From the IMG/VR virus record IMGVR_UViG_3300042401_001747: a stretch of DNA of 64,000 nucleotides. The stretch is one strand, 5' to 3'. This DNA is from a virus. The translations under genes and the position numbers were made by a program. How positions within the stretch are numbered: position 1 is the stretch's first letter; each line of letters opens with the position of its first letter. Shown in pieces: positions 22,571 through 64,000 of this stretch. Below the pieces are notes generated by a model. It did not search any database, was not told the DNA's origin, and was given only the letters and a program-made list of their open reading frames with translations.

Positions 22571-22757
22571 ATCTGGATGGCATCGGAGTATTTAAGGACG
22601 GGATATCCAGGAAAGAGGGTTTGCTCTCTTCCGGTTCGGGCTTTGATTTATTTTTCCCGGTTGTGCGTATTTTTGCAGTAGGCAAACCCCTGGCTCCTAT
22701 TTGGTCCAGTTCTAAGCTAAAAACTTTTTTCTGTTCGTCTTTTTTACCAAGGGCCAT
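22524..22757 (-). CDS. hypothetical protein
   Basis: ORF track; overlaps the giant ORF stop. Confidence 0.55.
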   Translation of the reverse strand: MALGKKDEQKKVFSLELDQIGARGLPTAKIRTTGKNKSKPEPEESKPSFLDIPSLNTPMPSRYVKPLKTRKKKDGDE

Positions 22758-31700: not shown

Positions 31701-33573
31701 TCGGTTTATAGGAAGTTTGATGAATCATTCGTGCATCAAGAGAAAGAGCTTTTTCTGGATTGTCTACTGCGGGGAGCTTGCTGTCTAGTTTTTCCAGAAG
31801 CGAGTCGCTGTATTTTGCAAATTCATCAAATTCTTTTTGTGCGTCTTTATCGCCTTTTGATGCCGCATAAAGAAGGGCGCTTACATAGCTTGAAGCGTTG
31901 AAGTCGCTACTTTCCGCAAGTACAGAAACATCTGCACCATGAACCGCTGAATACCATTTTTGTGCTGCTTTTCTTCCTTCTGCGGAAGAGGGGTCGAGTT
32001 TAAGTATTTCAAAAGGGTTGAGCGGCAGTTTTTTTATTCCATCACCAAACTCGGCCTGTTCATGGGCTCCAAAAACTATCGATTCGTTGCCAATTTTAAA
32101 AACTTGACCTGTCCATATGTATTCTTTTGGAGTAAAGCCTTCCTCCACTACCGGTGAGGAAGAGACGTTTGACGTTTTTAATAAAAGGTCAGACTCAAAA
32201 GTGTAGTCACCATCACGAAGAACGTCTTCACCGTCACTATATTTTGCAAAGAAGCCATATTTTCTGAATCCTTTTGCTCCGTAATCCGCTGTTCCGTTGT
32301 TTACATAATTAAACCATCTTCTAGTTTCTGCACTGGAAGTAATGTTTGTATCTGGGTTTTTGATAAGAACATGGTCAAGAAGGGCTTCTAGGACTCCTGC
32401 TTTTTGCGATTCCTTGCTTGCATTGTAAGAAAGAAGCTTAGTTGCTTCTCCTGTCGGGGGTTCGGAAAATGTAAGGCTTGCGATTTGTCCGCTTTCGTCC
32501 TCGATAAATACAGAAAAACCATCTTCTGATTGAGAAGTTTTTATGTCATATCCATCGCCGTTAAAACGAATAGAAGAATACTCTTTGCCGTCCCGAGAAG
32601 TTTCTAGAAGTTCTGACGGGTTGCGCTTGTCGTTATAGTCCGCTGATTCGTCGTAGATATTTTGTGCGTTATAGCGCCTAGCTGCACCGCTAGAGAGTCT
32701 TCCCGACGAGGGAGTGGCTGCAGAAAATGCTTTTCCATCTTCGCTCAGTGCGTCGCTATGCTGAAGGTCTCTTTCTGGAAAAACCTCACGGTGGGTATTA
32801 AACATTTCAGCAGCAATGCCTCTTCGCCTATGGCCGCCGCGTGTATTTATTTGAAAAACTTCGTTTCTGTCTTCTACATACCATGTCTCTAATGCCGCAA
32901 TGATTTTCATTTTTTCGTCACCAAGCGCGCTACGTAGTGCATCCTGCATATCTACGTCATCTATAGATAGTGGTGATTTTTTCCCATTAAAAGGGTTTTC
33001 TCCTTGTTGATTAAAATTATCAAGAAGTTTTTTGCGCTTTTCATCTACCGCAGAAGATGAGTAAGCCCTTACTTCGCCATCTTTATCCAGAACTATCCAG
33101 TAGTCTTCTTCTTTACCCTTTGGCTGAGTTGACCTAACTTTTTTTGCAGCTTTTAAGTTTCCATAGTCATAAACTTCAATCTCCGAGAGTTGAGTCATGC
33201 CGCTAGATAGTCTTTTTGGCGAGGGTGTCTTGTCAGAAGACGAAGACGCTATTGAATCCGGAGTCCCTGGCTTTTTCCCTTGACCGTCAATTCCGACCCA
33301 TACTGGCTTTGTTGTTCCCTCATCTGCCCAGCCATCACCGTCAACGTCCATTCTGGAGCCGGTAGGTTTTCTTTTTCCCGGCTTACCGCCCGTGGGGAGC
33401 TCGATATTTCCGAGTCTTCTTCTTTTACGTCCTTCGCCAATTGTCGGTCTATTTACTCCGCGAGAAGCTAAATACTGACCAAGTCGCCCTACGGCCGCTT
33501 TTTCCTCTTGGTTGGCCGCCAGACCGCGTCTGGACTCCTCGAAAGGGATGGGGAATTCATTATCGGAAGACAT
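22744..33573 (-). CDS. 3609-aa polyvalent protein / putative polyprotein (GNAT, DEDDh exonuclease, DUF1566-like, zincins, ART, pentapeptide repeats, Cys-His-Asp domain)
   Basis: RRRGIA (GNAT); FLDYETTG...HNADAD; WRLPSSEEL; HDLFGH; HEFGH...EAMAEAF; YRGF/SSWATS/EDE; A(N/D)LxG repeats; GDCF...HAWTE; ten (R/K)L(S/A)SG motifs. Confidence 0.88.
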   Translation of the reverse strand: MSSDNEFPIPFEESRRGLAANQEEKAAVGRLGQYLASRGVNRPTIGEGRKRRRLGNIELPTGGKPGKRKPTGSRMDVDGDGWADEGTTKPVWVGIDGQGKKPGTPDSIASSSSDKTPSPKRLSSGMTQLSEIEVYDYGNLKAAKKVRSTQPKGKEEDYWIVLDKDGEVRAYSSSAVDEKRKKLLDNFNQQGENPFNGKKSPLSIDDVDMQDALRSALGDEKMKIIAALETWYVEDRNEVFQINTRGGHRRRGIAAEMFNTHREVFPERDLQHSDALSEDGKAFSAATPSSGRLSSGAARRYNAQNIYDESADYNDKRNPSELLETSRDGKEYSSIRFNGDGYDIKTSQSEDGFSVFIEDESGQIASLTFSEPPTGEATKLLSYNASKESQKAGVLEALLDHVLIKNPDTNITSSAETRRWFNYVNNGTADYGAKGFRKYGFFAKYSDGEDVLRDGDYTFESDLLLKTSNVSSSPVVEEGFTPKEYIWTGQVFKIGNESIVFGAHEQAEFGDGIKKLPLNPFEILKLDPSSAEGRKAAQKWYSAVHGADVSVLAESSDFNASSYVSALLYAASKGDKDAQKEFDEFAKYSDSLLEKLDSKLPAVDNPEKALSLDARMIHQTSYKPTIDEKGYLVLRPLEDFPQTAKDGTEVTVNRTTLHFAVNHLAEGHLFRKETEGESYVVIAPLDSFIKENPDSLENFNIVDTAASPPPGDGLRFPPGSYKLVEIKKGEDGRKKVEDILRADGIDVLVGGERNSGTPGADNAGRIRAQMLGVSPNVASDLTLANLEQVNRTHISAERRYADVPSSTSFFQEASKNALLRIANRKENTWVSTSRKLKDDDSLSGSSARLASGRAPRYPREPTLGAFLEGAQERFDGVNSWEEFRERYAETEMVFLDYETTGLDFDEFGKATTNGNPTQIGLVRMRNGKEIGRLNLFMNPEQPLGEWSLANLKDADGSPITNEWLATQMPMAEAHRQVAEFIGPDAIIGVQNATFDKRVLEDALEREGIDWRPSGYLDTRDISAMTLPVWSEESPEGPYIIDRDGNKKPSSSLAAITEYLDVELGEGHHNADADAFATSQVMQKIIDRAIENGWSTDVLDKEKRDAKLKADNDKFNADVEKFESDKESFVAAQKEEGSARLSSGRNQVVTIGPVKKGRTPKKIQVRSEDLLSSREYSPENISQDEAFYLISELNDKARPGEPRWRLPSSEELIAIFKKNKNNREKIRIGDYLTDEFDGSDENGPWVRTVNMYTGAVGRQRSYNSEHVLLVSDSLPKKDDSKFAGPPTTRKLNAFIKDSGISVTKMTQDNEGSVSFTIPLKGENDDDDAADFVGKLDSWARDRQLVVNSENDYPEDFDWRTPLETQEEIRANRTGLNIRVYDRLASGANVVEAFNEPTEVTQQEAADIGLTRESLTGKKVAERIIKKIEETTGKELTKQQKYSIEDAIPGLTREIAGKTLLDVEVDDAFSETGKQLLESISIDIASDGIPFVSADPIPQLAEQIPDKRDWRTVELPKRDDIVSILDEAMNDVVVFNGSVWKDSDGNIIARKIYKNDASTLEFENDEARERFPLLEMLAPKGFVIRGDSISLPALTQDTLPEPYLEAWKKHSKFVRELTRRAGELMGDEEFFLPGSRISHSTDTYLRGYIGGITDPHKFNMGLYGKALQDTHDLFGHLGTGRAFDRHGEWANDLAMMSLADHPDSPLTPQEKIVVKHLHYMMYSAERMLRVGRLDEYDLNMNETMGYRNRPRTVFNIEGVSDSETRIYAGDFNSVLKKLDAASTSGRLSSGSKPIYEANEEDIELALAHDILGKNDRLSSGRQREMIPMNVPSKREQEGPNASGYGTQGSSGKIVRRDSSTWLADLNSDEISKVIIPTNAEEYFEMWADDIAGPTWRTDKNRETFIRNYYAELQKDSTNIPVDYSPESIAATQKLVKDLLDSSPSVMWVMQNFGAPLIVPFTREGMDAYENSPDMKERLALLAKQRGTEKIPFISGLANRSLGSIGISPRALIDRESLLNDDKDVYPISFDPDRVPAPRDAHIDRSLEGTLVHEFGHWIHHRALWDTETNGASGKMRSYYGTGKLSDPRYVASLDVAEEYGDYETDDKRIEIYSQFIDLTGRSPEEMFRAHPDEPLLSTSYGNINKREAMAEAFVAIMHPNKEMPEKTLSKKLRKDIYTLIGVDEKDLPWSDSEAGSENRLSSGAKKGKRKTIFSRFRKEETEEETVEEKSKPPVVERPEGLVSFAPEPSEELLKASPVPDEQTLRDEVLKDVQALALEFDSFQELSGTPSNAKASAIAKITIAANLSRSVDFDVQEFINVFATDKAGHGFHTTETFAAVQRLYKTLENLPVDATSTERRAAARAAFDTKSGRVIAAKIHDDILGRARYYDEILDKLETEEFGELFGSSSFAELMATDGGMRSLFTPYLMTKLGTDDIRREFLDELIPRRGLLNNLIAEIKENEGKAFGLAKIGEPNPKTGEQGYELISLLGRGVSSKVIDAMASLDVNDEDYLEKLSDIMPEFKNQLTLEKLKEIIKSGLVKVDSSSIDSPEVQKALKEHLLRNVRSRAGNYESKLESYTKETGVVFFDVETTEGKRIVREALVSDLIHTWAISANNANPVALAIQHEIRKMFGLDEAVGWSTSPLRARRLDEKEGMPAHEFDGAPELIDAQVAMIRPILQKIYDSTQLYYKTKGITHIPAYRGFTQSDTRLLAGEIESMDTTMRPLSSWATSMDVARSFSSTYSTAGTGTPTLIKTFVPVEDVFSNALTGFGCLNEDEVVLFGKPMRVLAVRTDAIQPESVGSMEKPSLLEKLKNVNIANIDKAFESITQRRETIFENSDTIEELFNSGSDIRGMDLSNTLLEGKKLAGANLSGANMQFSVMREIDLSNSDLTGAVMEDAILFKANLSGANMSETELARADLYMADLSGANLTEASMIKANINDTNLTEANLTRANMSQSVMTNADLTRANLEYANLEMANMFQAILEGANLKLARLIGAQMSDTNLKNADFTGANLTGANLLGADLRGADLSKAILTNITLFRGANLEGANLSGANLEGVDLTDVNLTGANLEGANLSGARISNANLTGANLTGAIMPDGNVMTNDQPVESVQKLSSGKKSHTPEWKTVEEIVDFEVLGASPDDSEEDRDDIVKESVGGDWMQWDPCREIRTAAYELAGIDEYSERDPNISQSGGFFGNSKFQTTVSPEKRTEQARYLMASVVDSLINGRKYDRQPYLYRAMMFSSPEEGKQFFDAMQVGSQVDIPLLAFVEIGPSPRGDHFLTRFGSDALLVLEDFPGSYQTGGTFEPVFSNRHESDTLYNINEFAEAILADVENGEVDEDNADYDKEFADKLIKLVEDYREAKTPLEKSNIKIDIEEALDEVGNETIQREWQGEPLPEDHEEYYDAMDDEDAGMTPREFVSGGRLEVVSVKPDESKAYRQIITLRQVGAFDPQEKGALVIKTDGENNTRLSSGKKPVKKAKPKSVQLHDDEFEKKFNQKVPDGEGDCFSEAIQQARKLADAYDKVKIVHGYPLGTGGEAEGLRFPHAWTEFERDGLVWVRDYSNGNRVEFPQILYYGIGNIEEADVLRYDIEEAEANMLESQHYGPW
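24280..25030 (-). repeat. pentapeptide-repeat coding region (A-N/D-L-x-x)
   Basis: About 250 aa of ANLSG/ANLTG/ADLRG repeats inside the giant ORF. Confidence 0.93.
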
Positions 33574-42209: not shown

Positions 42210-42604
42210 TTAAATTCTTCCCAGGTTTTGTCTCCTTGGCCGTAGTACTCACGAGCGTAGCCCGATGAAACTATGTCCTGATTAAGGCATGCGGTTAATT
42301 CGGATTTGACGTCCTTGTCGGAATATATTAAAGCCAGTACTCTTCCGTACTTATCGTCCTTGCCAGCAATCGTCTTTAAAAAGACCGTAGAGTGTCGCGC
42401 TGTCCAGTCCGTAGTAAAAGATTTTGCCTTGAGGCCCATTTGTTTTTCCGCTAAATCTTTGGTACGTGACTCCGGGGTATTTACCCCATAAAGTCTTACT
42501 CTGGCTTTGTGGTGAATACTAAACCCCAGGTCTATCATCACGTCCAGAGTGTCTCCGTCTATTACCTTGAGTACTTTTGCTGTGTACCAGTATTGCTCAG
42601 CCAT
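42206..42604 (-). CDS. SNase/thermonuclease-like protein
   Basis: KVIDGDT, RLYGVNTPE, KYGRVLA. Confidence 0.88.
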   Translation of the reverse strand: MAEQYWYTAKVLKVIDGDTLDVMIDLGFSIHHKARVRLYGVNTPESRTKDLAEKQMGLKAKSFTTDWTARHSTVFLKTIAGKDDKYGRVLALIYSDKDVKSELTACLNQDIVSSGYAREYYGQGDKTWEEFK

Positions 42605-43418
42605 TTTTTTGCTTAGCCTTGCGACGCTGTTTCATCATTTTTGCTGCCTTGGACATTCTTTTTAGTTCTTCTGAATCTTCCGAAACATAAGACTGCGATG
42701 CGGTTTTGGACGAAGGCGCTAGCTCGGAAATGTTTCTCCGAAGGGATGCGCGTATCGCTTGCTGCTCTTCGGACATGGATTCACTCAAGAACAACATTCC
42801 ATCAGGAGGTATAAGTCCTTTAAGTTCTTCTGAATTAATAAATTCGTTATAACTATCTGGCGAAAACTTATTAAAGTAGTCGTAAGAAAAATGTGATTTC
42901 TTAGATTTAGAATTCTGGTATCTTTCCAGCATTCTTCTTCCTTTTGCTGCAAGCTTCTTGGCATCTTCGATATTTTGAGGCACCGGTTCACCCCAGGCTG
43001 AAGCCGATAGAGCCAATCTAGTTGCTCTGCCCTTTTCGTCTTTCATAGGGCCTGATGGGTTTGTGAAGAAACGAGTCAAGAAAGAACCTTTTCTTCTCAT
43101 CTTTTCAGGAGTATCGGCAGCCCCCCTTACTCCTGGCTTCAAGCTAGCTCCTTCTTTTCTTTTGAAGTAAGCTCGTCCGGCAGCAGTCAGGCCACCCTTT
43201 GGGTCTTTAAGTACTGGTTTTTTTGAACCTTTGACTAGTACTTCCTGGAAAACAAAAGAGCCGTAATATTCATCGAATATTGGGTGCATTTCAATGTGCT
43301 TCAGCTCAATCATGGATTGGCTGGCTATCTGCTCAAGGGCTAGTTCTACCTCTATTTGGTCAGATAGGCCCTGGAGTTCTTCAAACGTTTTTTCGATGTC
43401 ATCAAATGGATTAGTCAT
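42597..43418 (-). CDS. phage protein with a DUF6321-like basic domain
   Basis: KDPKGGLTAAGRAYF...LKPGV...RRKGSFLTRF...AWG. Confidence 0.6.
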   Translation of the reverse strand: MTNPFDDIEKTFEELQGLSDQIEVELALEQIASQSMIELKHIEMHPIFDEYYGSFVFQEVLVKGSKKPVLKDPKGGLTAAGRAYFKRKEGASLKPGVRGAADTPEKMRRKGSFLTRFFTNPSGPMKDEKGRATRLALSASAWGEPVPQNIEDAKKLAAKGRRMLERYQNSKSKKSHFSYDYFNKFSPDSYNEFINSEELKGLIPPDGMLFLSESMSEEQQAIRASLRRNISELAPSSKTASQSYVSEDSEELKRMSKAAKMMKQRRKAKQKNG

Positions 43419-43507: not shown

Positions 43508-44875
43508 TCAGGCTGGTGCGCTGTTGAAGGTTACTTCGACGAATGCTTCTGGGCGCTTGACAGCGAGTGCAAGTCTTTGCTCTGCAAGGATAACGATTGC
43601 GTTGCGGACGAAGAAGTCCGAATGCTGTTCGCTGATGCGGATGCTTGCTTCTTCACGGTCGTACAACTGTGCTCCGGTACCGAAGGCTCCAACAAGTGCC
43701 TTACCTTCAGTCATTGCTGGAGTGTCAACGATTGGCATACGCCAGACGCGTGGCTCGCCACCCATTGCAACCGAAACTGCGATGAGGTACTGGCCGTTAG
43801 TGTCCTTGGTAAGCTCGATGTCTTCCCAGTCGTTCGGGTGAAGAACGATGCCGCTTGGCTCGTAGTACGCAAGGAACGACAAGGTTGCCGCACGACGAAG
43901 TGCATCTGCCTTGGTGTCTGGTACTGGCAGAGCTGCACCGCTTGACCAGTTGTATGTCTGAATGTTTGGTGTGTTACGAACGCCCAACAAGTTTTCACCA
44001 GCACCGTTACCGTTGAGGATTTGGTTATCCTCAAGGAGACGGAGACCGTACATCAATTCGTTGTCGATGATGCTGCGGAGCTGTGGCTCGTCTGCAAGAA
44101 CGTTACGGTGTGCTGCTTCCCAATGTGCAAGTGTACGCACTGGAGCCTGCTCACCAACGAAGGCGAACGAAGACTGTGGCTTGACACCGAATGCGGTATT
44201 GCCGGCGTTACGCTCTGCAACTGTTGATGCACTGTTTACGCCTGCTCCAGCCTGCAAGGTTGTGAAACCAAGTTGACGGAAGTATTCGATAACTGCAGCG
44301 TTTGTCTTGCGGACTGGGAACAAGTCACGAACACGCTTTGTACGTGTTGGTGGCAATACCATTGGGTCACGCTGTACGGAACCAAATGAACCAAGACGGC
44401 TATCGGTTACTGCTGTTGTTGGCAGACCCGAGTAAACGTCCTTTACGTTGTAACCAGAGGTGTATGAAGTCAACGATGCAGCAATTTGCCATGGTGAAAC
44501 CATGTTTGCTCCATTGCGGCCACCATTAAGTGCCTTGAACTCTGCTGAATCAGTGAACATTTGACCAATTGACTTGATTTCATGTGATGACAAGCTACCA
44601 AGGTCTGCTGCAGCGGCAGCATAAGCTGCTCCTGTGGAGCTACCTGATGGCTGTGATGCCCAGTTATCAACTTGGTTCATGGTCTCAAGGTCACCGATAA
44701 GGCCCTTGATTTCTTTGATGTCGCGCATGTTCTTGTCGAACGCTGACTTTTGCTCAGGAGTAACGACTACTGTGCCGTCCTCGATTTTGAATGAATCTGC
44801 GATGGTCTTATTGTCTGCCATCTTTGTGCGAAGAGCTGATTGTAGTTCTTCTGTACGTGCTTTGTCTTCCGACAT
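43508..44875 (-). CDS. major capsid protein, HK97 fold
   Basis: VRTLAHW...VLADEPQLRSIIDNELMYGL...EDNQILNGNG...LHPNDW...FVRNAIVILAEQRLALAVKRPEAF; N-terminal delta domain; AGGAG RBS. Confidence 0.95.
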   Translation of the reverse strand: MSEDKARTEELQSALRTKMADNKTIADSFKIEDGTVVVTPEQKSAFDKNMRDIKEIKGLIGDLETMNQVDNWASQPSGSSTGAAYAAAAADLGSLSSHEIKSIGQMFTDSAEFKALNGGRNGANMVSPWQIAASLTSYTSGYNVKDVYSGLPTTAVTDSRLGSFGSVQRDPMVLPPTRTKRVRDLFPVRKTNAAVIEYFRQLGFTTLQAGAGVNSASTVAERNAGNTAFGVKPQSSFAFVGEQAPVRTLAHWEAAHRNVLADEPQLRSIIDNELMYGLRLLEDNQILNGNGAGENLLGVRNTPNIQTYNWSSGAALPVPDTKADALRRAATLSFLAYYEPSGIVLHPNDWEDIELTKDTNGQYLIAVSVAMGGEPRVWRMPIVDTPAMTEGKALVGAFGTGAQLYDREEASIRISEQHSDFFVRNAIVILAEQRLALAVKRPEAFVEVTFNSAPA

Positions 44876-45031: not shown

Positions 45032-45703
45032 TTACTTACTAATGAGCTCTCGCGTGAGGGATGTTTTCCTTGTGACGCTTGACTTTGGTTTTTCGCGTAA
45101 GACAGTCCTGACGGCGTTTCTGGTTTCCTGTTCACGCCTCTTGCTGACGTTTCTTCTGCCCAAAGATGTTGAACCAGTTCTATTGGAATAATCAGTCATA
45201 TTTGTGCACGGCATCCATACCGTGCGTCCTGACTTGCTCACTCTTCTACTGATTCCTATGCACCCAATCTGGCGAGAACGAGCCTTGGCGGATTCCGGGT
45301 CAATAAAGACGTCTACGTCGTTATCTCTTACAAACTCTGGGCCGACACCCTTTTCTTCGCAGCATCCAATGGATTTACCACTAAAAGACGTAGACGAGAC
45401 GATTCCTCCACCTTCCAGTGAGCCGATTCCTCGTATTGGTGCTTCCGTCAGGTTTTCCCATCCATCAGAGCGTCGTTTTCTCTTGTTTTTTCCGATGCTT
45501 CTTTTTGTTCCCGCTTCTTTAGCTCCTGGAACGACACTTCTCCATCTTGATGTCTCGGCAGTGTTTGAGATTCTTTCCATCTCTTCCATGGAAGCGCAAG
45601 GCATCCATCTACCTTCTGAATCTTTGTGTGCGCCGGAGCACCCTATGTCTTGAGCAAGACGCAGAGCCAATACTTTTGCTTTTGCTGGAGATTTACCTTG
45701 CAT
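45032..45703 (-). CDS. protein with two IGC...WMPC repeats (DUF3721-like)
   Basis: AQDIGCSGAHK...WMPC and SRQIGCIG...WMPC. Confidence 0.7.
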   Translation of the reverse strand: MQGKSPAKAKVLALRLAQDIGCSGAHKDSEGRWMPCASMEEMERISNTAETSRWRSVVPGAKEAGTKRSIGKNKRKRRSDGWENLTEAPIRGIGSLEGGGIVSSTSFSGKSIGCCEEKGVGPEFVRDNDVDVFIDPESAKARSRQIGCIGISRRVSKSGRTVWMPCTNMTDYSNRTGSTSLGRRNVSKRREQETRNAVRTVLREKPKSSVTRKTSLTRELISK

Positions 45704-49052: not shown

Positions 49053-49557
49053 TTATGGCCTTTTCTATACTTCTCATAGTCTTAACTGAAAGCCACGCAA
49101 AGTCGCGTTCTTCTAGCGACTTAAAGGCGTAATCGTTTACGTTTAACTGTACCACCTCGCTGCAGCACGAGTTGGAAAGCATGCGGCGAGTGATTTCGTC
49201 CAGTCGGAAAGACTTAACAGACTTTTCAGTTTTGTCTATCTTTTTCTTATTTTTACCAAGCGCTGAATGCATTGGCATCGAGTCCATGAGTGAATCGTTT
49301 ATTGGACGTGTTTTCTCAATAAAGGTTTCGTACCATGCTCCCGACAAGGGGTCTTTGGGGGAGTCCCATACGAATCTTTGAAAAGGAGTGTTTCGTAGTT
49401 TTGTAAGATTTCTAGCCGTACTTGACAAGTGCATTAAATCCATTTTTACAATCGAGCCGTCAGCCTTCTCAACAGCCGCATCCTTCTGGCCTCTTTTTGC
49501 GTCCACGTCGTAATAAACACGCGAGTCCCCAAGAAGCGCTACAAGTGCAGCTCTCAT
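49039..49557 (-). CDS. hypothetical protein
   Basis: ORF track; GGAGG RBS, ATGA overlap. Confidence 0.7.
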   Translation of the reverse strand: MRAALVALLGDSRVYYDVDAKRGQKDAAVEKADGSIVKMDLMHLSSTARNLTKLRNTPFQRFVWDSPKDPLSGAWYETFIEKTRPINDSLMDSMPMHSALGKNKKKIDKTEKSVKSFRLDEITRRMLSNSCCSEVVQLNVNDYAFKSLEERDFAWLSVKTMRSIEKAINDEQ

Positions 49558-52500
49558 AGCTTTCCTCCATATATGGATGTCACTTTTGGCTTATTTGTGG
49601 TTTTCATTTGCTTAAGTAAGTCTTTCGCTGCTGCAATAATTTCCTCAGCTATGGAGTCCTTAAGGGTTGACTCAACAGACTGGCCTGCTTTGGCACTCTT
49701 TGAATGAGAGCGAGCGTCTTCAATATTGAAACCATTCGGGTGAGCAAACTTGACATTATTCAGGCCACGCTTAGCAAAGTCGTCTTTCATCTTCTGCGAT
49801 GCTCTGTATTTACGGAGCATGGACATGCTTGCCGTGTCTAGCGATTGTCCTCCACCCATAGAGTAGAAGTATTCAATCTCTTCTTGAGAAAATCCAGCTT
49901 TTCTTAACTTGTCAGCAATCGATACGGCATCAACAACGTCGGAAATGTCTTCTTTCGCCGAGGCGGCTTCAATCTTGCTCAATGGAACGTTTATTTGTTC
50001 GATATCAGCAACGTCAAATCCGCCCAGAATCTGAGCCTCAAAAGGTTCCCTGGTGGAGCCTTCGGGTAGTTTCTTGTCGAACGAAGATGGCATTTTTCCA
50101 CTAGAGCTTCTTGATGCGTTTGCGTTCGAAAAATCGTTATTCAAAGAAGAAGAGAGCATATGTAGAAGAGCTTCTCGTTTTGTTTCTTCAGCGTTTACTC
50201 CGTCGGCATTAAGGATTGCGTCAGCTACGTCATCTCTGTTACGCGAGTTAAGCATTACGGGCCTGTGAGCCGAAGTGAGAGCATTGCCTCGTCCGTAGGC
50301 GACTCGGTTTGACACTCCAGGGCGCAAAACTATTTCCATGTCACCCAGAGCAGTTAGGCCGTCTCCAACCAAATCTTCGTCCCCTACTTCAAACACGCCA
50401 TCTGGTCTGAGGTTTCCAGGCATTCCGCCTTTTGTAATCTGGGCACGTTTTGCATCCATGTGAGATTTGTGAACTAGATATCCACTTACTGGCATCATGT
50501 CCGGGTCAAGAGAACCGGGAAGACCTATTCTTGAATAGTATTCGCTAGCGTAGTTTTTAGGAGACATTCCTACCGTCTTGCCTGAAGCAGGAGCCTCAGT
50601 AGTCTTTCCACTGCTCAGTCTCTTGCCTTTACGCATTTTTGCCAACCTGCCAACAGATTCTCTTTCTGCGGGAGCATCTGCCGAAGGTTTTGTTCTCACA
50701 TTACGAACGGCTGCGTCAAGTTCTGCCTCACGAGCCCGTGCTGCTGGACCAGCTCTTCTCGTCAGTGCATCTTGTTGCCGAGTCAATACTTCTTCTGCAT
50801 ATGCAGGGTTGTTTCTCATCCCGACTGAATCAATCTCGATAAAGTCACCTTCTGCATAGATTTCAGCCGCAAGGTCATCCATGCCGTCGTTGATTTCTTT
50901 CAGCACCCTGTCTCTTTCTCCAATTTTAACTTTCTTAACATCGCCTTCTTCGAAGTCAACAGCTCCAGTAAGTTTTGCGTCCTTGATTCCTAATCCTCTT
51001 TGAAGAACTTTTGTTAAAGTAAGACCACTAATGATGTCTGTCTGAACTTCGTCAACGTGTAAGGGGATTTGCTGGTCGTCGTCTACTTCTCCGTTAAATA
51101 CGGTTATTGCGCTCCATCTATGGTGTCCGTCAAGTAGCAACTTATCTGAGGTTGCCAGAATGGGGTCCATCATTGCACTGGTACCCCTTCTTTCAGAAAG
51201 TTTAGCCTTAGCATTGGTGTCTTCTTTTAGGGCTTGAATTAAAGCATCGGTGAATTCTTTTGTTCCCCTCTTGTATCTTCCGTCTTTTGTAAGAACTTCG
51301 GTGTAGTGCTTAACGGCAGCTTTCAGTGATTTGTGCATCCCATCGGTCTGTACGGCATCTAATTCCTGTTGAGAAGGAGTGTAATCATCCGGGTTAACAG
51401 CCAGGTTTTCTTTTATTGAATCGTCACCCAATTTCCCTCTAATTATTTCCTTAATCATTTCTTCTCCGGAAACTTCAAAAAGATTCCAGTCCATATTTTC
51501 TATTACGAACTGTCTGTCTTCATCTGATATAGAGGCAGCGGATTCTGGACTCTCCTGAATTTTTTCCATGATTCCTTCAAATCTTTTTTCACCGTCCCAT
51601 GTTTTTATTTTATAAGGGTCAACATGTTTATGAGGGGCCTCTTTGATAGGAATCTGTCCAGCAAGACCGAGCTCTGCTCCGCGAGTATTTGCTCCTGCTA
51701 AGCGTCCACCAGCCTGAGGCATTTTTGCTCGTGGAATACCAAAATTGTTTCCGCAGAAAACGTTTTCGTCTCCATCGTAGAAATTGCAAAGATTCGTTTT
51801 GTATTGGTCGCCAAACTTTTTTAAGAATTCTTTTTTTATTTTTTCTTGGAAAACGGAAGGGTCTACGCCGTCGGCACCATCGATTTTTTCTGCTTCTGCC
51901 TTAAAATCAAGCCATTCTTTTTCATTATTGGCAATAATGTCTTCACCCATTGTTTCGATGTCTTTGAAGAATTCTTGCTGGAGTGTTTTTGCAAAACGTA
52001 AAGACTCTTTTTGTTTTTTAGCTATTGCTTCGTCGGAGGAGTACTCAAGGGTGACGTGATGACCCAGCGCCATCAATGCTATTGCTTGCCCGACATTGTC
52101 AACCTTATAAACAGCCATGTCCTTGGGGTCTGAGCTCGTAAATAACGGCTTCATGTCGCTTGGTTTTACCGAGTCACCAAAATCTTCTTTCAGCTCTTCA
52201 GGGGTGTATTCGTGAAGAGGTTTTCCGCGCTTACGAACTTTTGCTAGAACGTCTCCGGCTATTTTTCTAGTCGCATCCCTCTGGGCATTGACTTGTCTTT
52301 CTTTTGCCCTCGCTGCATAGTCTGGATTGTTTGAAAGACCAACCGAGCCAAGCTGAATAAAGTTTCCTTCGGCGTACTTGTCGTCCACAAGAGTTCCTAC
52401 GTTTTTGGTCAAGCCTTCCATGAGTTCAGATATTTCTTCCTTACCGATGTCGGTTATTTCTCCCTCTTTCCACTTGTTTTCAGCTCCGAGGCGCGCTTCC

Positions 52501-55500
52501 TTAATTCCCCAAGCGTCCTGAAAAATCTTTCCTAAAGTTAAAGCTTCAATTATGTCGGTTTGTATTTCATTAGCCTTCAAGGGGAGCTGTAGCTCTTCTG
52601 GGAGTGAATTATTTCCAACCCTTATTCCTGCCCATCTGTGATGGCCATCAACAATAAAACCATCGTTTGCTGTAAGAATTGGCTGCATGAACCACTGCTT
52701 GTTCATCTCTTCTATGTATTTTGTCCTAAAGTCTTCGTCCGATATTCCAGGATTGTCAGCTCTTATACCCTCGGCAACTTCTATCGCTTTTGTTTGTATT
52801 TGTCTAGCAGTAGCGTCTACTTTTGATGCAACTAGCTGTTGTTGCGAGGGGGCATAATCTTTAGGATTAACTTCTTTGAGAATTACTGAAGGTTTACCAT
52901 TTCCTGGCTCAATGACGCCATCTAGCCATTCTATAAACGGTGTCTCCAGGTTTACTTCTGTGTCGTTCCAGTCTGTATTTTCATATAGCCAGTTTTTTGA
53001 AGCATCAGACAATTTCTCATAAGACTCCGTCTTATGTTCCTGCTGTGTTTTGCCTCCGAATTGATTTCTTAGTGAGTGTTTTTCTGAAACTATCTCATAA
53101 AGTTGTTTTGAAATCTCTTCGTCTGTCAATTCTGGTTCGCCTTTTTTGACTCTACCAGCATTGGCTTTAGCTACTGCTGCGTTAAGCTCTTCTGCGAACT
53201 CTGCTTCAACGGCAGCATCTCTTTTTATTGTCTTTAGGGGTTCAAACTTTCCGGCAGCTTCTCCGGCTTTTAGCGCTCTTACTGCGACAGTATCGTGACC
53301 TGCAGACCTTCCGTTTGTCTGAGGCATTTTTTCTCTATCGATACCAATGTGTCCCGAACACAGCAAGTTTTGTAATGGGCTATATAGGGCACACAGGTCG
53401 GCCTGGTAGCTTTCTACATAATTCTTTTCCATTTCTTTAACAACTTTCGGGTCGTTAAAATCTAAATCTTTAAATTCTTTTTTATACTTTTCTTGATACT
53501 TGACCCATTTAGGGTGAGGATTTTTAGCATCAATATGCTTTTTTGCGGCATTTTTTACTTCTTCTTCAAACGCCTTTTGTGACTGCTCAGTCAGTCTCAG
53601 GTCCTGGTCCTTAACAGCAACGTGATGCCCCAGCATCATTAATGCAATTGCTGTTGGGACGTCGTTGACTTCATACAGTGTGTCGTTTGTGGCGCTGACT
53701 GATTTTTTCTTAGACTTCTTTACTTTTCCGTTGAAAGCCGCAAAGAGTTCCGCCTCAGACATGTCGTCAATGTTTTTGCCGTCTCCGCTTAAAACTTTGT
53801 CAAAAATGTCAAAAGCCTGTGTGGCGACTTCTTTTTCTTGTCTTTTTCTTTCAGCTAGATTGGCCGAGGAATCAATAACTCGACCGGATGAAAGACGTGA
53901 AGAACGCTCACTTGGCCCCATTCCCGAGTATCTTTGTGCTCTACGTGATGTTCTCTTTGCTTCATCGTCTGGAGAAGCAAAAGAGGACCTTATTGAACCA
54001 GTGGAAGATAGTCTCTCAATGTCGTCGTCGGTGGCGCGAACGCGAACTCTTCTATCAAAGCCTTCGTGCATTCTGTACGCAGTATTCTCGGCTCTCGCTA
54101 ACAAGTCTTCTTCGGGAGTGTCAGCGATTAAACGAGCTACGTCTGGATGAATGTCGCCCCTTGATAACGGGTCGGCCGAATCTCCCTGTCCTCCTCCAAG
54201 AATGGATTTAACTTCCCTAACCTGAGAAGACATTGATTTGTTTCTTGATTCTGTTCTTTGCTTGCGTGTGGCAGGAGCGCCCAGTACGTCTTTCTTTCCA
54301 GAAGACAAGCGGGAACTTGAGTCATCAGACGACAAGTGAGGGGGTAGTTCGTCAAAACCTTCTCCGAAAGAACCACCAGCGTCCACAACCTCGTCTACAA
54401 CCGTTTTGCTTGAGGTTTCTGAGACGGAATCGTAATCACTTCTAGAACCACTAGAAAGTCGCCCTGATTCACGGCGGGAGTTAACGTACTTGTCTGCTAC
54501 TGCTTTGATTTTTTTACCGTGACTTTGAGCCCAAATGGCGTCAGTTTTGTTTGTTTCCAAACTGTGAGCCATGGAGTCAATAACCTCAACAGAGTCTTTT
54601 TGATAAGACAACTCTGCTCTTACTGTTCCATCAGGGTCTATCCCCGTAATGCGAAGGCGTCCAGGTGGAGCAACGAAGCGTTGGTCGTCATCTCCCGCTG
54701 CAGGGAAGAGGCCCCTGTCTCCCTCGCGAACCTGTACAACCACACGGCGAGCGGTTTTCCCAGTTTCTTTGTCGCGAATTCCTTTTTCTGGCATGTCCAG
54801 TTTTTTTGTTTTTGTCGTCAGGACCTTGCCGGAAACAAATTGTGGCATTTCAATTTCTTTGCCTTCAATTTTTCCTCGTAAAACACCTGAATCGAAATCA
54901 ATAACTGTTTCCATCTCAAATGGGTCAGCAATAGACGTTCCGTCAATTACTTCCATGACTGGGATTAATAGATTCTCTACCTGCTGGACGACATCGCCTT
55001 CTTCAGATGATTTTTCATCAACCGTAAGTCCCAGTCTCTTGATTCTGGCGTTTCTTTTATTTATTGCTCTTCCGGCCCTGGTTTGAGCTACGGGGTCAAG
55101 TAGTTGTCCTACATCTGAAGATGCAATGTCCCCGAGTTCTTTGACTGCCTTTTTCTGCTCTGCTGTTCCGCGAACTCGACGACGTTCTTTTAACGCATGG
55201 TCTTTTGCTTCTTGCTTACTCTTTAAGGACACGTTCTTTTTCGCTGGAGGAGAAATCAAATCCTTAACACTCTGGTCCAGATTTTTCTTTATTTTGGCAG
55301 TTGTTGACTTGTCTCCTGCGTCACGCATATTTTGTACATACTGCTCTTTTATGACGTCTATCTTTTCAATTAGGTTTTTAGCCTCATCGGAAGAAGGGTC
55401 AAGAGTGCTTAGATATATTTCGTCATCAGCCAGGCGTCGAACTATCTTCTTTTCTGGCATTTTTTCTACAGACTTACGAAGGTCATCGAGGGCTGCTATT

Positions 55501-60019: not shown

Positions 60020-63000
60020 TTACTTTTTTTTGTTTCTTGTACCTTCGTACAACGTTTGACCGTTCTCAATTCTTTCTTTTGCGGTTCTTAACTGCTCAGC
60101 GCTAAAGATGTCATCGAGTGTGTGGGTTGTTCCAAAAACTTCGTTGAACTTGTCAACCATTGTTTGCATTTCTGAAACAGAAAATACAACCTCGGTGCCT
60201 TTCTTTATGCCCCATGCTGAACCTTTTGCTGCAGCAGCATCGTTAAGCGCGGTTGCCATGTCCGTAGCTCCAATTATCTTGTTGCGGCTCGCAATACTGT
60301 TGAGCCTGTTGGCTTTAGAGAAGCTTTTATCTATGAACTCATTGAGGGCTTCATAAACCGCATACTTGGGTCTTTGTAGTTCTTCGTCAAATAGCTGGCC
60401 TGTCTTGCCTTCCTTCCAAATGTCTGCTGCGTTTGGTAGAACTCCTTTACGAATCATGTGAGCAATAGTCGCCGTTGGGATTCCCTTCTTTGCCCAGTCT
60501 GAATTGACCCCAGTGCTCTCCACCCCAAATGCCTCAGAAAGAATCTCACTAAGTCTTGATATCCACTCTTTCTTATCTATCCCTAGGTACTTAATTAAAG
60601 GCTCAACATCAAAGTCTTTTCTATTTGTCTTGTCAATCTTCATTACTTCATCACCATCATCGGGAAGGGATGGGGAGTTTAAAAGTTCGTCGAAGCTTTG
60701 TCCGTAAAGGTCAATTTCGGCTTCCGAATCCCCCTCGAAAGGGTCGTCAGCGGCAAATCGTCCCGTTGCACGGAACATTGCTCTCTCGTCGACCTCTCCT
60801 AGCTGGGAGTACTCATCTGGGCTGATTGCTTCTTCTTCGTCTTGGTCGAACCAATAAGGGAATGCGTCCTTGCCGAATGTTTCAATGATGAAACGGTCGC
60901 GCATGTTTGCTCTACCGGCATTCTCCATTGCCATGTCCACTTCGGAAGTGATGCTTTCTGTGTTCCCTTCTGGGGATGGAATTATCTTTTTTATCTCATC
61001 TCTTGAAACTGGAGCAAAATAGCGCCACGCTTCAAGACCGGGTTGATTTCCAAGTTCCGCAATCAAAAGCCTCACTGCATCATGGTTTATTCCAGCATCT
61101 GGGTTTTCAATTTTCTGCTTGTTTTGTCCACTCAAGCCCAAAAGGCTTGCAATTTCCTGTCTTGTGGCAGAACGTGACCGAATAACTTTTCCGTTCATGG
61201 AGAATGATTCTGGAATTCGAAGCTGCTCAGCAAGGGCATCCACTGACAGCATCCATGTTTCTGCCGATGGGCTATCGTTGACTAGGTTGTCTCCAACTCG
61301 TCCAACTCGAACCCTGTTTTGGCGAGCCTTCATGGCTTTGCCTACTTCTGCCATGGCGTTTTTTGTTTTATCTTTGCTTTCAGCATTTATTTCAATGCCT
61401 CTCTCCCTGAAGCCAGCCCATGTCTGCATCGCAAAATCTATTAAGCGACGATTCTTGGCCGAATTGGGGTCTCCGGAAATTCTTATTGCAGCAAGGTCTT
61501 GGGCGCTTATGGCACCAGGGGTGACGCGACTACTGCTTCTTACACCCATTCTTCTAGACAGACGACGGCCAGGGCCGGGGTAGTTTGACGTTCCGCTAGA
61601 GAGACGCATCTGACTATCGCCATCGTCGCCCATTTCATCCGCATCAATTAAGTCATCTATGTCTACTTCAGATTCGTAATCGTCTGGGTCGTGGACAACA
61701 TCATTAATATCCTTATCCACGTCGATGACCAGGTCTGGGTCAATTTCAATTTCTTTTTCTTCAGGTGTTTCTCGGTTTGGAAGGTTGTCTTCACCTATGT
61801 CGTCAAGACTCATCTGATTCAGTTCTTCATAGAACTTTGGAAGAGAGACGCCGTCTTTGTCCCCAAAGGCTCCTTTGTCTAGTTCTGGCGGAATATGACC
61901 GTCCGCCACTGCTTTCTTAATTGCTGCGCGAACATCTTTTGTTGATTCATCGTGGAGGTAGTACTTAAACCCCTTCCAGCCTGGGTCAATCATCTTTTTC
62001 GCACGAGAAAAGGCTACGTGAATGAGGTTTGTTTCTTCCATAAAGGCAAGTCCTGCTTGTCCTTGTGGAATGTTTGCAGCCAATGAATCACGAGGGTCGC
62101 CCAGGTCTTCTGCTACTGCAACAAAATCCGACTCTCGGCCTTTTGAGAGCTGAATGGTTGTAATTTCTACGTCTCCGCCAGGGCCTTGGGCTGCGTCCCT
62201 CATCGCTTGACCGATGTCATTCAGTATCTTTGTTGACTCTTCAAGATTTTCGCCTTCAATTACGAAGCCGTCAAACGCCCTGCGCTTTGCTCCACCCTTT
62301 GGTCCGCCTCTTTCAGCGTCTTGCATTATCTTGACTTTTTCGGATAAACCAAGATTTAAAATTATTTTTTCTAGGTCTCTTCTGTAGCGACCATTGCCTA
62401 CCCTCTGGTTAGGGGGTATATTTTTCCCTTCGGAACCGTCAGGAAGTGTCTGTGGTCTACCCGTGTCTACACCATCACCGGTAATAATAATTTTCCCAGT
62501 TGGTTTTCCAGGATTTTTTGCGTCGCCGCCCGTTATTTCCAGCTGAGCATATACGGCCTGGCGACCGTCAGTCGAATTGCTAGGTGGAGGAATTATTACG
62601 ATTCTTTCTAATTGAGAATCTTTTGCTTGAGGCGCATCTGCTGCTTTGGAAGCTTTTGATATGGCATCAATTTCTTCCGGTTCTTTTCTGAAATTCTCAA
62701 GCGTTATGCTTTTTCTTTCTGGAAGAATTGATGCAGGGATAACAATAATTTTTTCTTTGCCGGTTTTTGCATCTATTTCAATTTTTTGCTTGCCGTTGAG
62801 AAGGGTCAACATTCCTGATATGCCAAGAGCAGAACCGCCAGCGGGAGGCTTTTGCATTATGAGCTTAAAAGCGCTCCTGGCTTGCTGCCCTGCTTTTTGA
62901 TTTATTACCCTATTTAGTCCACCCTGGTCAAAAATTGGCCCAATCCATCCCGAAACTTCGGGAAGACCACGCTTATCTTTTTCTGCCTGAGGCATAAAGA

Positions 63001-64000
63001 TGTACTCAAGGTGTTTGGTAAACTTTAAAAGTTCTTCGTGCTTGCTTAAAGGAATGACCACTTCTGGCATAATCGGCAGTCCGTTGTCGTCTTTTTTTGC
63101 ATTTGGACTATCGACAACAAGTTTAATAAACTTAAGAGTTTCATTAATGATTTCCGCGTTGGTTCTGCAGAGAATCATGGTTGGAAGATTTGGAACTTCT
63201 TTATTTGCTTCCTCAACCCTGTCTACTACTTTTCCGGCTTTCGGCTCAAGGACGGAGTCTCTTAATTCTCTAAGTTTTTCATCCTGCTCTTTACGTGTTA
63301 ATTTTTTTCCAGCTTGCTTTCCAACCGTATGTATAGAGAAATTCAAACGCTTTTCTGGGGTTGAGAATTTTTCTTCTATATCTCTAAGCAGGAACTCGCG
63401 CGTGGCATCGTCAATTTCGTCAACCGGCTCAAGTCCTTTTCTGTCTTTTTTAGGAAGCAGTGGGTCGAAGAGCCTGTGTACAACAACCTGAGCCTTGCCT
63501 TTAACGTGCTTCCACGGCAGTTGAGGGACCCCCTGCTTGTCAAGGTAGAGGTTTTGCATACCTAGAACAAGGTTTGTCAGGTGTCCAACCACTTCCCCGT
63601 ATCTAAAAGATTCTGTAATTGTTAATTCGTAGTCAGCGTTTAGAGACTCAAGGATATTTTTTGCGTTACGGAACGCATAAACGGCTTGTCTGTCGTCTCC
63701 AACAACAACTATTGGAAGATTGGCTCTATTGTTATCAAGTACTGTTTCAAGAATTTCATTTGAATCTTGTGCTTCGTCAACAAAAAATGCACTGAGTGGT
63801 TTTTCTTCTGTTGCCATTCTCTTAGTTAGAGTAACTTGAACGTTTTTGCCTTTACTCTTTTTTCTTGTCTTGACTATCCATGTTTCGCCTTCGAATTCAT
63901 ACTCATCACCAACCGCATATCTGTCTGGGAGGGTTTTTTTACGCTCTTGTGACTCGGTGTGCGTTATTAAGCCCGGGTCTGTGCGAAGGTCGGGCTCAGT
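60020..64000 (-). CDS. giant protein (5'-truncated) with a UvrD/SF1 helicase domain
   Basis: Frame stays open to the window edge; VDEAQD, VGDDRQAVYAFR, ESFRYG, LCRTNA, TIQLSKGRE, NLIHVAFSRAK; Walker A must lie outside the window; one RLSSG. Confidence 0.85.
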   Translation of the reverse strand, partial: TEPDLRTDPGLITHTESQERKKTLPDRYAVGDEYEFEGETWIVKTRKKSKGKNVQVTLTKRMATEEKPLSAFFVDEAQDSNEILETVLDNNRANLPIVVVGDDRQAVYAFRNAKNILESLNADYELTITESFRYGEVVGHLTNLVLGMQNLYLDKQGVPQLPWKHVKGKAQVVVHRLFDPLLPKKDRKGLEPVDEIDDATREFLLRDIEEKFSTPEKRLNFSIHTVGKQAGKKLTRKEQDEKLRELRDSVLEPKAGKVVDRVEEANKEVPNLPTMILCRTNAEIINETLKFIKLVVDSPNAKKDDNGLPIMPEVVIPLSKHEELLKFTKHLEYIFMPQAEKDKRGLPEVSGWIGPIFDQGGLNRVINQKAGQQARSAFKLIMQKPPAGGSALGISGMLTLLNGKQKIEIDAKTGKEKIIVIPASILPERKSITLENFRKEPEEIDAISKASKAADAPQAKDSQLERIVIIPPPSNSTDGRQAVYAQLEITGGDAKNPGKPTGKIIITGDGVDTGRPQTLPDGSEGKNIPPNQRVGNGRYRRDLEKIILNLGLSEKVKIMQDAERGGPKGGAKRRAFDGFVIEGENLEESTKILNDIGQAMRDAAQGPGGDVEITTIQLSKGRESDFVAVAEDLGDPRDSLAANIPQGQAGLAFMEETNLIHVAFSRAKKMIDPGWKGFKYYLHDESTKDVRAAIKKAVADGHIPPELDKGAFGDKDGVSLPKFYEELNQMSLDDIGEDNLPNRETPEEKEIEIDPDLVIDVDKDINDVVHDPDDYESEVDIDDLIDADEMGDDGDSQMRLSSGTSNYPGPGRRLSRRMGVRSSSRVTPGAISAQDLAAIRISGDPNSAKNRRLIDFAMQTWAGFRERGIEINAESKDKTKNAMAEVGKAMKARQNRVRVGRVGDNLVNDSPSAETWMLSVDALAEQLRIPESFSMNGKVIRSRSATRQEIASLLGLSGQNKQKIENPDAGINHDAVRLLIAELGNQPGLEAWRYFAPVSRDEIKKIIPSPEGNTESITSEVDMAMENAGRANMRDRFIIETFGKDAFPYWFDQDEEEAISPDEYSQLGEVDERAMFRATGRFAADDPFEGDSEAEIDLYGQSFDELLNSPSLPDDGDEVMKIDKTNRKDFDVEPLIKYLGIDKKEWISRLSEILSEAFGVESTGVNSDWAKKGIPTATIAHMIRKGVLPNAADIWKEGKTGQLFDEELQRPKYAVYEALNEFIDKSFSKANRLNSIASRNKIIGATDMATALNDAAAAKGSAWGIKKGTEVVFSVSEMQTMVDKFNEVFGTTHTLDDIFSAEQLRTAKERIENGQTLYEGTRNKKK

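Follow-up and report, generated by a model that had tools for sequence, protein, structure and literature searches.

The window analysed here is a 64,000-nucleotide (nt) piece of the IMG/VR record IMGVR_UViG_3300042401_001747, an uncultured tailed phage of about 157 kb from a lake, with relatives from IMG/VR used for the rest. It encodes three giant proteins, here named G1, G2 and G3, that share a short recurrent peptide, RLSSG, and this peptide is the subject of the present analysis. An initial annotation of the window counted 15 copies in the three proteins, a number that holds solely for the pattern [RK]L[SA]SG (12 RLSSG, 2 RLASG and 1 KLSSG), and the positions it listed for RLSSG in G2 and G3 are all exact, the quoted coordinate being the low end of each 15-nt motif. 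From their composition, the three giants would be expected to hold 0.069 copies. G3 runs past the end of the window, and its missing start was read in L001, an IMG/VR contig that is 98% identical; the full-length protein there has two extra copies, KLSSG at amino acid (aa) 681 and RLSSG at aa 1198.

The same annotation saw no copy in proteins of ordinary size, and the 12,987 aa encoded by the window's 64 remaining non-overlapping genes indeed contain none; had the motif been as frequent there as in the giants, 24.9 copies would have been expected (P = 1.6e-11). A six-frame check found no further open reading frame (ORF) of at least 50 aa in the window carrying the motif, and allowing one mismatch to RLSSG brought up nothing credible in the head proteins, those of the capsid and the portal side included. 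The codons used vary among the copies (AGA/CGT/CGA/CGC, CTT/TTG/CTG, TCT/AGC/AGT), and since they differ, it is at the protein level that the motif is conserved. Motif aside, BLASTP detected no similarity among G1, G2 and G3, and a shared loading domain was not found.

G2 and G3 lie upstream of the gene for an HK97-type major capsid protein, on the same strand. The gene order in L001 is large terminase (TerL), portal (PF04860) and then a G3 of about 2940 aa that is led by an S78 peptidase domain; G2 and G3 sit between the portal and capsid genes, which is a virion (late) gene context. G1 does not: it is outside the head module and adjoins a primase/helicase gene.

Giant proteins and their modules

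Table 1 Motif copies, giant genes with their modules, and neighbouring head genes in the window
Feature	Position (nt)	Strand	Remarks
RLSSG, G2 aa 1263	54447-54461	minus	kept in 7/37 homologues, close relatives only
RLSSG, G2 aa 1313	54297-54311	minus	[LF]SSG kept in 32/37 homologues
RLSSG, G2 aa 1451	53883-53897	minus	[LF]SSG kept in 36/37 homologues, to 30% identity
RLSSG, G2 aa 2543	50607-50621	minus	directly before conserved C-terminal module
RLSSG, G3 aa 799 of window part (aa 2408 of full-length L001)	61592-61606	minus	
Giant G1	22744-33573	minus	3609 aa, ten motif copies
Giant G2	49554-58247	minus	2897 aa, four motif copies
Giant G3, C-terminal 1326 aa	60020-64000, extends past window end	minus	one motif copy inside window
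UvrD-like superfamily 1 (SF1) helicase region of G3 (aa 69-669 of window part)	61994-63796	minus	PF00580 3.1e-7, PF13538 weak, phrog_1967 DNA helicase 3.4e-20
Acidic linker of G3, 40-45% Asp/Glu	61607-61798	minus	directly upstream of motif
G3 C-terminal 523-aa part	60023-61591	minus	no family assignment; close relatives only
Lethal-factor-like zincin region of G2 (aa 400-800), candidate	55848-57050	minus	HExxH at aa 604-608, nt 56424-56438
ParB/Srx-like module A of G2 (aa 1456-1989)	52281-53882	minus	DGHHRW motif; phrog_2859
ParB/Srx-like module B of G2 (aa 1990-2542)	50622-52280	minus	29% identical to module A
Conserved C-terminal module of G2 (aa 2548-2897)	49557-50606	minus	ends equivalent giant in 5/6 other genomes
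Conserved 556-aa head-module protein between G3 and G2	58263-59933	minus	no motif
HK97-fold major capsid gene	43508-44875	minus	PF05065 2.6e-40, phrog_10

From the N-terminus, G3 consists of an S78 prohead protease, a Cys-rich module, an ArdC-N domain with an MPTase-PolyVal zincin, a UvrD/SF1 helicase, an acidic linker, the RLSSG motif and a C-terminal part. The first of these lie in L001, where the protein has Peptidase_S78 at aa 32-175, ArdC-N at aa 840-908, the MPTase-PolyVal zincin at aa 966-1089 (PF18818, E 8.6e-39) and then the UvrD-type helicase. The RLSSG of G3 had been described as dividing the helicase and acidic linker from the C-terminal part, and the local sequence bears this out: the motif is preceded by about 60 aa of which 40-45% are Asp or Glu, and then come a basic segment and the C-terminal part. 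The Cys-rich module (aa 327-418 of the G3 ORF, L001:3630-12449) is also found as a free-standing gene of 114-124 aa in the genomes G009, G011, G012 and G013 (37-65% identity), and is an example of a module that moves between polyprotein and solo gene.

G1 contains an RNase_T exonuclease, an Lcl_C domain and pentapeptide repeats. It also has the sequence HEFGH at aa 2050 (27410-27424), and between one and three HExxH motifs occur in each of its homologues from G002, G013 and G014; the recurrence of HExxH in G1 and its homologues indicates that zincin-like units are common in these chains.

G2 begins with a conserved N-terminal unit that includes a putative zincin. A cluster of three motif copies follows, then two ParB-like modules, and the fourth copy separates these from the conserved C-terminal module. 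The junction between the two ParB-like modules carries no copy, so the motif does not mark every domain junction. Most homologues hold one such module, and the tandem pair of ParB/Srx-like modules is therefore taken as a recent duplication. The C-terminal module, of about 350 aa, has counterparts of 27-68% identity in G002, G009, G011, G012 and G013, with no match in G014 at E<=1e-8. The N-terminal part (about aa 20-280; 57408-58190) is likewise conserved in the equivalent giant of all six other genomes, with middle cassettes that differ, and these conserved ends may serve in loading or anchoring. Each of G1, G2 and G3 combines several unrelated conflict-type domains in one polypeptide, as polyvalent proteins do.

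Look-ups in the Protein Atlas of a 675-aa head-module protein and of the 556-aa one returned no function. The capsid gene is flanked by two small ORFs of this module, at 45032-45703 with a match to DUF3721 (5e-13) and at 42597-43418 with a match to DUF6321 (5e-28); a DUF6321-like stretch also follows the S78 domain in G009, G011 and G012.

Conservation of the motif and its lineage-specific versions

Relatives were collected with the capsid protein. From these, 80 loci were fetched, together with six complete or near-complete genomes for whole-genome motif counts (G002, G009, G011, G012, G013 and G014). G002, of 156 kb with terminal repeats, has a capsid protein 89% identical to that of the window. 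The motif is again confined to large proteins: the 80 loci have 84 copies in 114,280 aa of ORFs of at least 1200 aa, versus 3 in 368,941 aa of ORFs shorter than 700 aa. The 17 copies of G002 are confined to four proteins, namely its counterparts of G1, G2 and G3 and a protein of 1596 aa, with none in the other 41,472 aa, which agrees with the earlier suggestion of a genome-wide signal restricted to a few giants.

G2 has 38 database homologues, of 27-93% identity. What most of them retain at aa 1451 and 1313, though few do at aa 1263, shows that the selected core is [LF]-S-S-G, usually with Arg or Lys in front, so that a recurrent peptide is confirmed but exact RLSSG is not its conserved core. 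In pairwise comparisons of G2 homologues, homology breaks and insertions begin at the motif. For example, in P0033 an insertion starts right after the site at aa 1451, and in both G2 and P0023 the conserved C-terminal module begins directly after the last copy.

Among cultured phages, the nearest relatives of the capsid protein (48%) are those of Gordonia. The N-terminal 1262 aa of G2 had no tblastn match in 50,697 phage records, and a search for a recurrent peptide in the portal-to-capsid interval of the Gordonia phages, where toxin and ligase genes lie, found none. In Gordonia phage ChisanaKitsune (L007, MZ820089.1 10104-39477) this interval encodes an RNA ligase, a VIP2-like ADP-ribosyltransferase and a 970-aa 'HNH endonuclease', which suggests that it is likewise a cargo hot spot.

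The more distant relatives also have giant ORFs in the head module, from which RLSSG is absent. Word counts made de novo revealed a recurrent peptide particular to each of these genomes; the proteins that carry it are of the same classes as before, and outside them it is almost absent. This is G-L-A-S-x in G014 (26 copies in proteins of at least 1000 aa and 3 elsewhere, 2 of them in an 806-aa head-module protein), G-F-A-S-x in G013 (21 copies), I-S-G-R-M in G012 (13 copies in large proteins plus 1) and [IVL]-[TS]-G-[AS]-M in both G011 (16 copies in large proteins plus 3) and G009 (9 copies). If the versions are superposed at their hydrophobic residue, every one of them fits hydrophobic-[S/A/T/R]-[S/G]-x, and the core that the codes have in common is hydrophobic-small-Ser/Gly.

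The fourth carrier is the tape measure protein of the tail. In G002 it is the 1596-aa ORF (L098:8995-13782, outside the window), which directly follows the genes for the sheath (phrog_23), tube (phrog_5102) and tail chaperone (phrog_5088). The ORF has no family match, and its assignment as tape measure therefore rests on gene position and on hydrophobic Gly-zipper segments. Its code site is orthologous between genomes, being N-terminal at about aa 27-60, after a predicted amphipathic helix, and it reads Q-KLSSG-R in G002, T-GLAS-V in G014, E-GLASR-G in G013, R-LTGAM-G in G009, N-LTGAM-T in G011 and R-LAGRM-G in G012. In 19 further genomes it is mostly LSSG, FSSG, LASG, FASG or xTGxM, and across the 25 genomes it changes along with the code.

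A signal that is rewritten together on at least five proteins per genome implies one reader that changes with it. The initial annotation had proposed a single factor acting in trans, and the sequences of the carriers give this good support, the strongest being that they switch their motif together between lineages, as one trans-acting reader would predict. The same annotation had spoken of cargo polyproteins and had placed G2 and G3 in the head module. These two do lie there, but G1 is outside it and the tape measure is a tail protein, so that the carriers are not confined to cargo of the head.

No strict copy of the code was found in capsid or portal proteins. Most capsid proteins of the clade have Q/S-L-S/T-S-R/H-E at aa 94-99 (44580-44597), just before a highly conserved IKSIGQMF block; in the window clade this is Q-L-[ST]-S-R-E, which shares L-S-S with the code. 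This may be the end of an N-terminal scaffold-like part, or a maturation site. In G011, G012 and G013 nothing at the capsid junction resembles the genome's own code.

Taken together, we consider it likely that the motif is a cleavage code, of one kind or another, for a phage protease. A signal that is not proteolytic, such as a docking, modification or linker signal (for example a Ser modification site, or a handle for loading or ejection), seems improbable. It would suit the Ser that is central in most versions, the resemblance of RLSSG to the site of a basophilic kinase, and the probable exit of every carrier through the tail. However, there are up to 26 copies per protein, placed at module borders; in G2 homologues the breaks in homology and the insertions start at the motif; modules are found elsewhere as free-standing genes; and the GFAS and ITGAM versions lack a basic residue. 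The concerted change suits an enzyme pocket, although it would suit a binding pocket as well.

A little less probable still is cleavage at the motif by a protease of the host, or by one of the phage that has gone unrecognised, once the proteins have been ejected into the next cell. The tape measure certainly travels down the tail at infection, and the giants do so by inference; the lack of code copies in capsid and portal proteins also counts for this explanation, as does the absence of CLP_protease (PF00574) from all of 14 near-complete relatives, and any further phage protease would be of an unknown kind. A search for a T4-type S77 protease, also with no hit in the 14, was uninformative, as it was silent in control genomes too. 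On the other hand, no candidate gene was found. The reader is more plausibly borne by the phage, because the five-residue codes of close relatives are so different, whereas housekeeping proteases have a broad specificity.

Candidate readers of the code

We tentatively favour the view that RLSSG is this lineage's version of a proteolytic code, found at the borders of the modules of G1 to G3 and in the tape measure, and that its reader is the S78 protease of G3. From the genes we infer cutting at the motif, the position of the cut, the presence of the giants in the capsid and the S78 domain as the enzyme. One phage-encoded protease would read the code in trans. The S78 protease and the giants would be built into the procapsid and the protease activated there, and the chains would be cut into an anti-restriction unit of the ArdC type, an SF1 helicase, ParB-like nucleases, an exonuclease, a pentapeptide-repeat unit and others, which could then leave with the DNA at infection.

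The S78 domain, read in L001 past the end of the window, matches PF04586 with 42.8 bits (cut-off 21) at aa 32-175 and the head maturation protease family phrog_80 at 9e-26. Each of the 14 near-complete relatives has exactly one, which invariably opens an ORF of 800-4900 aa, and the position of the domain between the portal and capsid genes fits a prohead protease of the HK97 type. Neither of the catalytic residues, H70 (in VVWGHNW) and S134 (in EWSIGY), varies in 41 sequences or in any of the 7 genomes. The AlphaFold2 model has a predicted local distance difference test (pLDDT) score above 90 over aa 30-165, and the best Foldseek matches to it are T4 gp21 (5jbl) and herpesvirus proteases, with probability 0.96-0.99 and E about 1e-2. 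The predicted fold is thus that of T4 gp21 and the herpesvirus assemblins; searches of PDB sequences with the S78 domain, and with G2, gave no match. Assemblin-fold proteases read sites of the type hydrophobic-x-small/acidic, examples being the herpesvirus site V/L-x-A, cut before a following S, and the T4 gp21 site, cut after L/I-x-E.

The family is large, with 446 relatives of the capsid protein in IMG/VR and, among 1.84 billion representatives searched, 261 cluster representatives of the S78 protease at E<=1e-30. Of the 150 best relatives of the S78 domain, most are the first module of proteins of 900-5358 aa. These S78-led proteins carry codes at module borders, with the maximum of 26 copies per protein given above, and the codes include [RKG][LFM][SA]SG, G[LFM]AS[RST], G[ML]RS[RS] (for example G-M-R-S-R and G-L-R-S-S), G-L-S-S-G, T-G-R-M and others. 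The columns of the S78 alignment that are most tied to the class of code are residues 141 and 143, on the strand that starts at the catalytic S134. R-x-Q or N-A-K at 141-143 pairs with x-Phi-[SA]-S-G (232 copies), D-S-[VI] or D-A-I with G-Phi-A-S (153 copies) and Q-A-[TSN] with G-Phi-R-S (72 copies). In the S78 tree the GFAS clade groups with the LSSG clade, yet it has D141 as in the GLAS clade. This tracking of the code class by residues 141 and 143 in the alignment is suggestive. At the end of the S78 domain (L001 G3 aa 170-178) is the sequence Q-L-T-G-T-I-S, which is invariant in all code classes and fits hydrophobic-small-Gly; it could be a site of self-release of the protease.

Several points weigh against the S78 protease as reader. 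The covariation at 141/143 amounts to 1-3 phylogenetically independent contrasts, so few that a sign test cannot reach significance (p>=0.5), and positions 141-143 are generally variable, which makes coincidence possible. The S78 domain is 70-80% identical across the code classes. The tape measure carries the code, though it assembles into tails outside the procapsid, and a literature search found no precedent for a prohead protease that cuts a tape measure. The capsid protein, the canonical S78 substrate, lacks a strict code copy, with the junction off-code in G011, G012 and G013. Finally, a second putative protease, the zincin of G2, is positionally conserved in 7/7 genomes examined.

This candidate, a zinc metallopeptidase resembling lethal factor, within about aa 400-800 of G2 and with HExxH at aa 604-608, is a less likely but serious alternative as reader. 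It would cut N-terminal to the invariant hydrophobic residue, that is, between R and LSSG, G and LAS, G and FAS, or x and ISGRM, and its action would take place outside the procapsid or following ejection, which would let it reach the tape measure. Zincins typically select for a hydrophobic P1' residue, and the sole invariant hydrophobic position of the code suits this, although it equally suits P3 of an assemblin-type site. The HExxH motif and downstream Glu residues are invariant in 20 G2 homologues, down to 34% identity (HExxH, Q212, E306, E310), and the equivalent giant in all six other genomes has HExxH at aa 478-620. For a model of aa 400-800, the top match in VIA-align is 1yqy_A, the catalytic domain of anthrax lethal factor (Z 8.5, root-mean-square deviation 3.5, 168 residues aligned), and zincins make up most of the list below it. 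The code site of the tape measure is also readily explained, because a zincin that is soluble or co-ejected need not stay in the procapsid. The proposal of Iyer et al. (2017) that polyvalent proteins are processed by MPTase domains (PMC5512222) also counts in favour of the G2 zincin.

However, the fold match is middling, a Z of 8.5 being near the usual best score of unmatched models, and neither Foldseek with the zincin model nor Pfam on the region (E<=10) gave a match. In a profile search the HExxH regions of G009, G011, G012 and G014 had no detectable homology to that of G2, so that what they have in common is position and motif only. The zincin of G013 resembles that of the LSSG phages, though G013 shares its code class with G014; these two genomes have very different zincin regions, which counts for S78. 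Moreover, a zincin that was active before packaging would free the chains from whatever loads them. The S78 protease remains favoured because of the precedents in T4, phiKZ and SPN3US, because activation in the procapsid suits the polyprotein design, and because residues 141/143 track the code.

The other zincin, the ArdC-type MPTase-PolyVal domain of G3, is a very improbable reader. It stands beside ArdC-N (as PF18818) in G3, and Iyer et al. (2017) proposed autoprocessing by such domains. However, PF18818 is missing in 4 of the 14 near-complete relatives (G009, G011, G012 and G014), which have 9-29 code copies each, and ArdC-N with its zincin is a complete anti-restriction unit by itself. The absence of PF18818 from four code-bearing genomes rules out the ArdC-type zincin as a universal reader. 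It excludes only this type, as the second giant of every genome has another HExxH domain.

An extension of the S78 proposal, rather unlikely in its full form, is that protease and cut site are a private, fast-drifting pair. The code would be rewritten on every ejected protein, with residues 141 and 143 of S78 setting it, and the fused protease would act beyond the procapsid, perhaps after ejection. Such drift could prevent co-infecting relatives, or host decoys, from processing or hijacking the cargo.

Significance and comparison with known systems

Four elements appear to be new with respect to the literature searched, namely a chain led by its protease, many internal sites per chain, a code specific to the lineage, and a site in the tape measure. 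To our knowledge, polyproteins coded for a protease are textbook material for RNA viruses and have hardly been described for tailed double-stranded DNA (dsDNA) phages. If the proposal is true, it would explain how a dozen counter-defence enzymes can be loaded through few loading events and yet be released as separate proteins. The motif would also offer an easy way, from sequence alone, to divide giant phage ORFs, of which thousands lack annotation, into their functional modules. Nature has supplied a range of switched codes together with candidate residues for specificity, and these offer a ready experimental system for studying the co-evolution of protease and substrate and for the design of orthogonal cleavage pairs. 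Finally, the site in the tape measure would tie the maturation of head and tail to one signal, for which no precedent turned up in the literature searched.

In picornaviruses (3C), coronaviruses (3CL) and flaviviruses (NS3), the polyprotein contains a protease that recognises a short consensus between modules, both in its own chain and, in trans, in other chains. The likeness is functional only: those proteases are chymotrypsin-like or papain-like and release replication proteins, whereas here we have a tailed dsDNA phage with an HK97 capsid, whose modules resemble injected counter-defence enzymes.

A second comparison is with the Dar system of phage P1 (DarB of 250 kDa, DarA, DdrA/B, Hdf and Ulx), in which the head is loaded with large anti-restriction enzymes that are later injected; a signal at the N-terminus of DarB localises it to the capsid, and DarA and DdrB are reported to be processed (PMC9024508, PMC5512222). 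The P1 components are separate gene products without a common internal motif, and the protease is encoded by a separate gene.

The polyvalent proteins of Iyer et al. (2017) combine 2-15 conflict-related domains (ArdC-N, MPTase zincins, helicases, ParB nucleases of the DdrB type) beside virion genes; the prediction for them is that they enter the cell along with the DNA and that a peptidase within the chain processes them (PMC5512222). Here too there are embedded zincin-like MPTase domains, namely PF18818 in G3, the candidate HExxH domain in G2 and HEFGH in G1. That paper describes no cleavage motif, 'cleavage site' being found solely in a cited title and 'linker' not at all (PMC5512222). Moreover, an assemblin-like peptidase is reported there only at the C-termini of polyvalent proteins, whereas it is N-terminal here, and neither a lineage-specific code nor a site in the tape measure was reported for them (PMC5512222).

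In T4, phiKZ and SPN3US, prohead proteases cut internal and ejected head proteins, at L/I-x-E for T4 gp21, S/A/G-x-E for phiKZ gp175 and A-x-E for SPN3US gp245 (PMC5694885, PMC10052503). There, a single assemblin-fold protease recognises a short motif in many different proteins, which enter the procapsid and are ejected later, much as is proposed here from the genes. Two positions ahead of the cut, that motif has a residue that is hydrophobic or small, as the present code may. Cleavage is proven in those phages and predicted from sequence here. Their substrates are separate proteins that lose an N-terminal propeptide, whereas the present substrates are long chains, reaching about 3600 aa and as many as ten internal sites; the present protease is of the HK97/S78 type and, unlike theirs, is the first module of one of the chains. 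The motifs of T4 and phiKZ are stable over wide groups, whereas the present one differs between close relatives and, again unlike theirs, is also carried by a tail protein. Functionally, then, the closest known system is the motif-coded prohead processing of internal and ejected proteins, and architecturally it is the polyvalent proteins.

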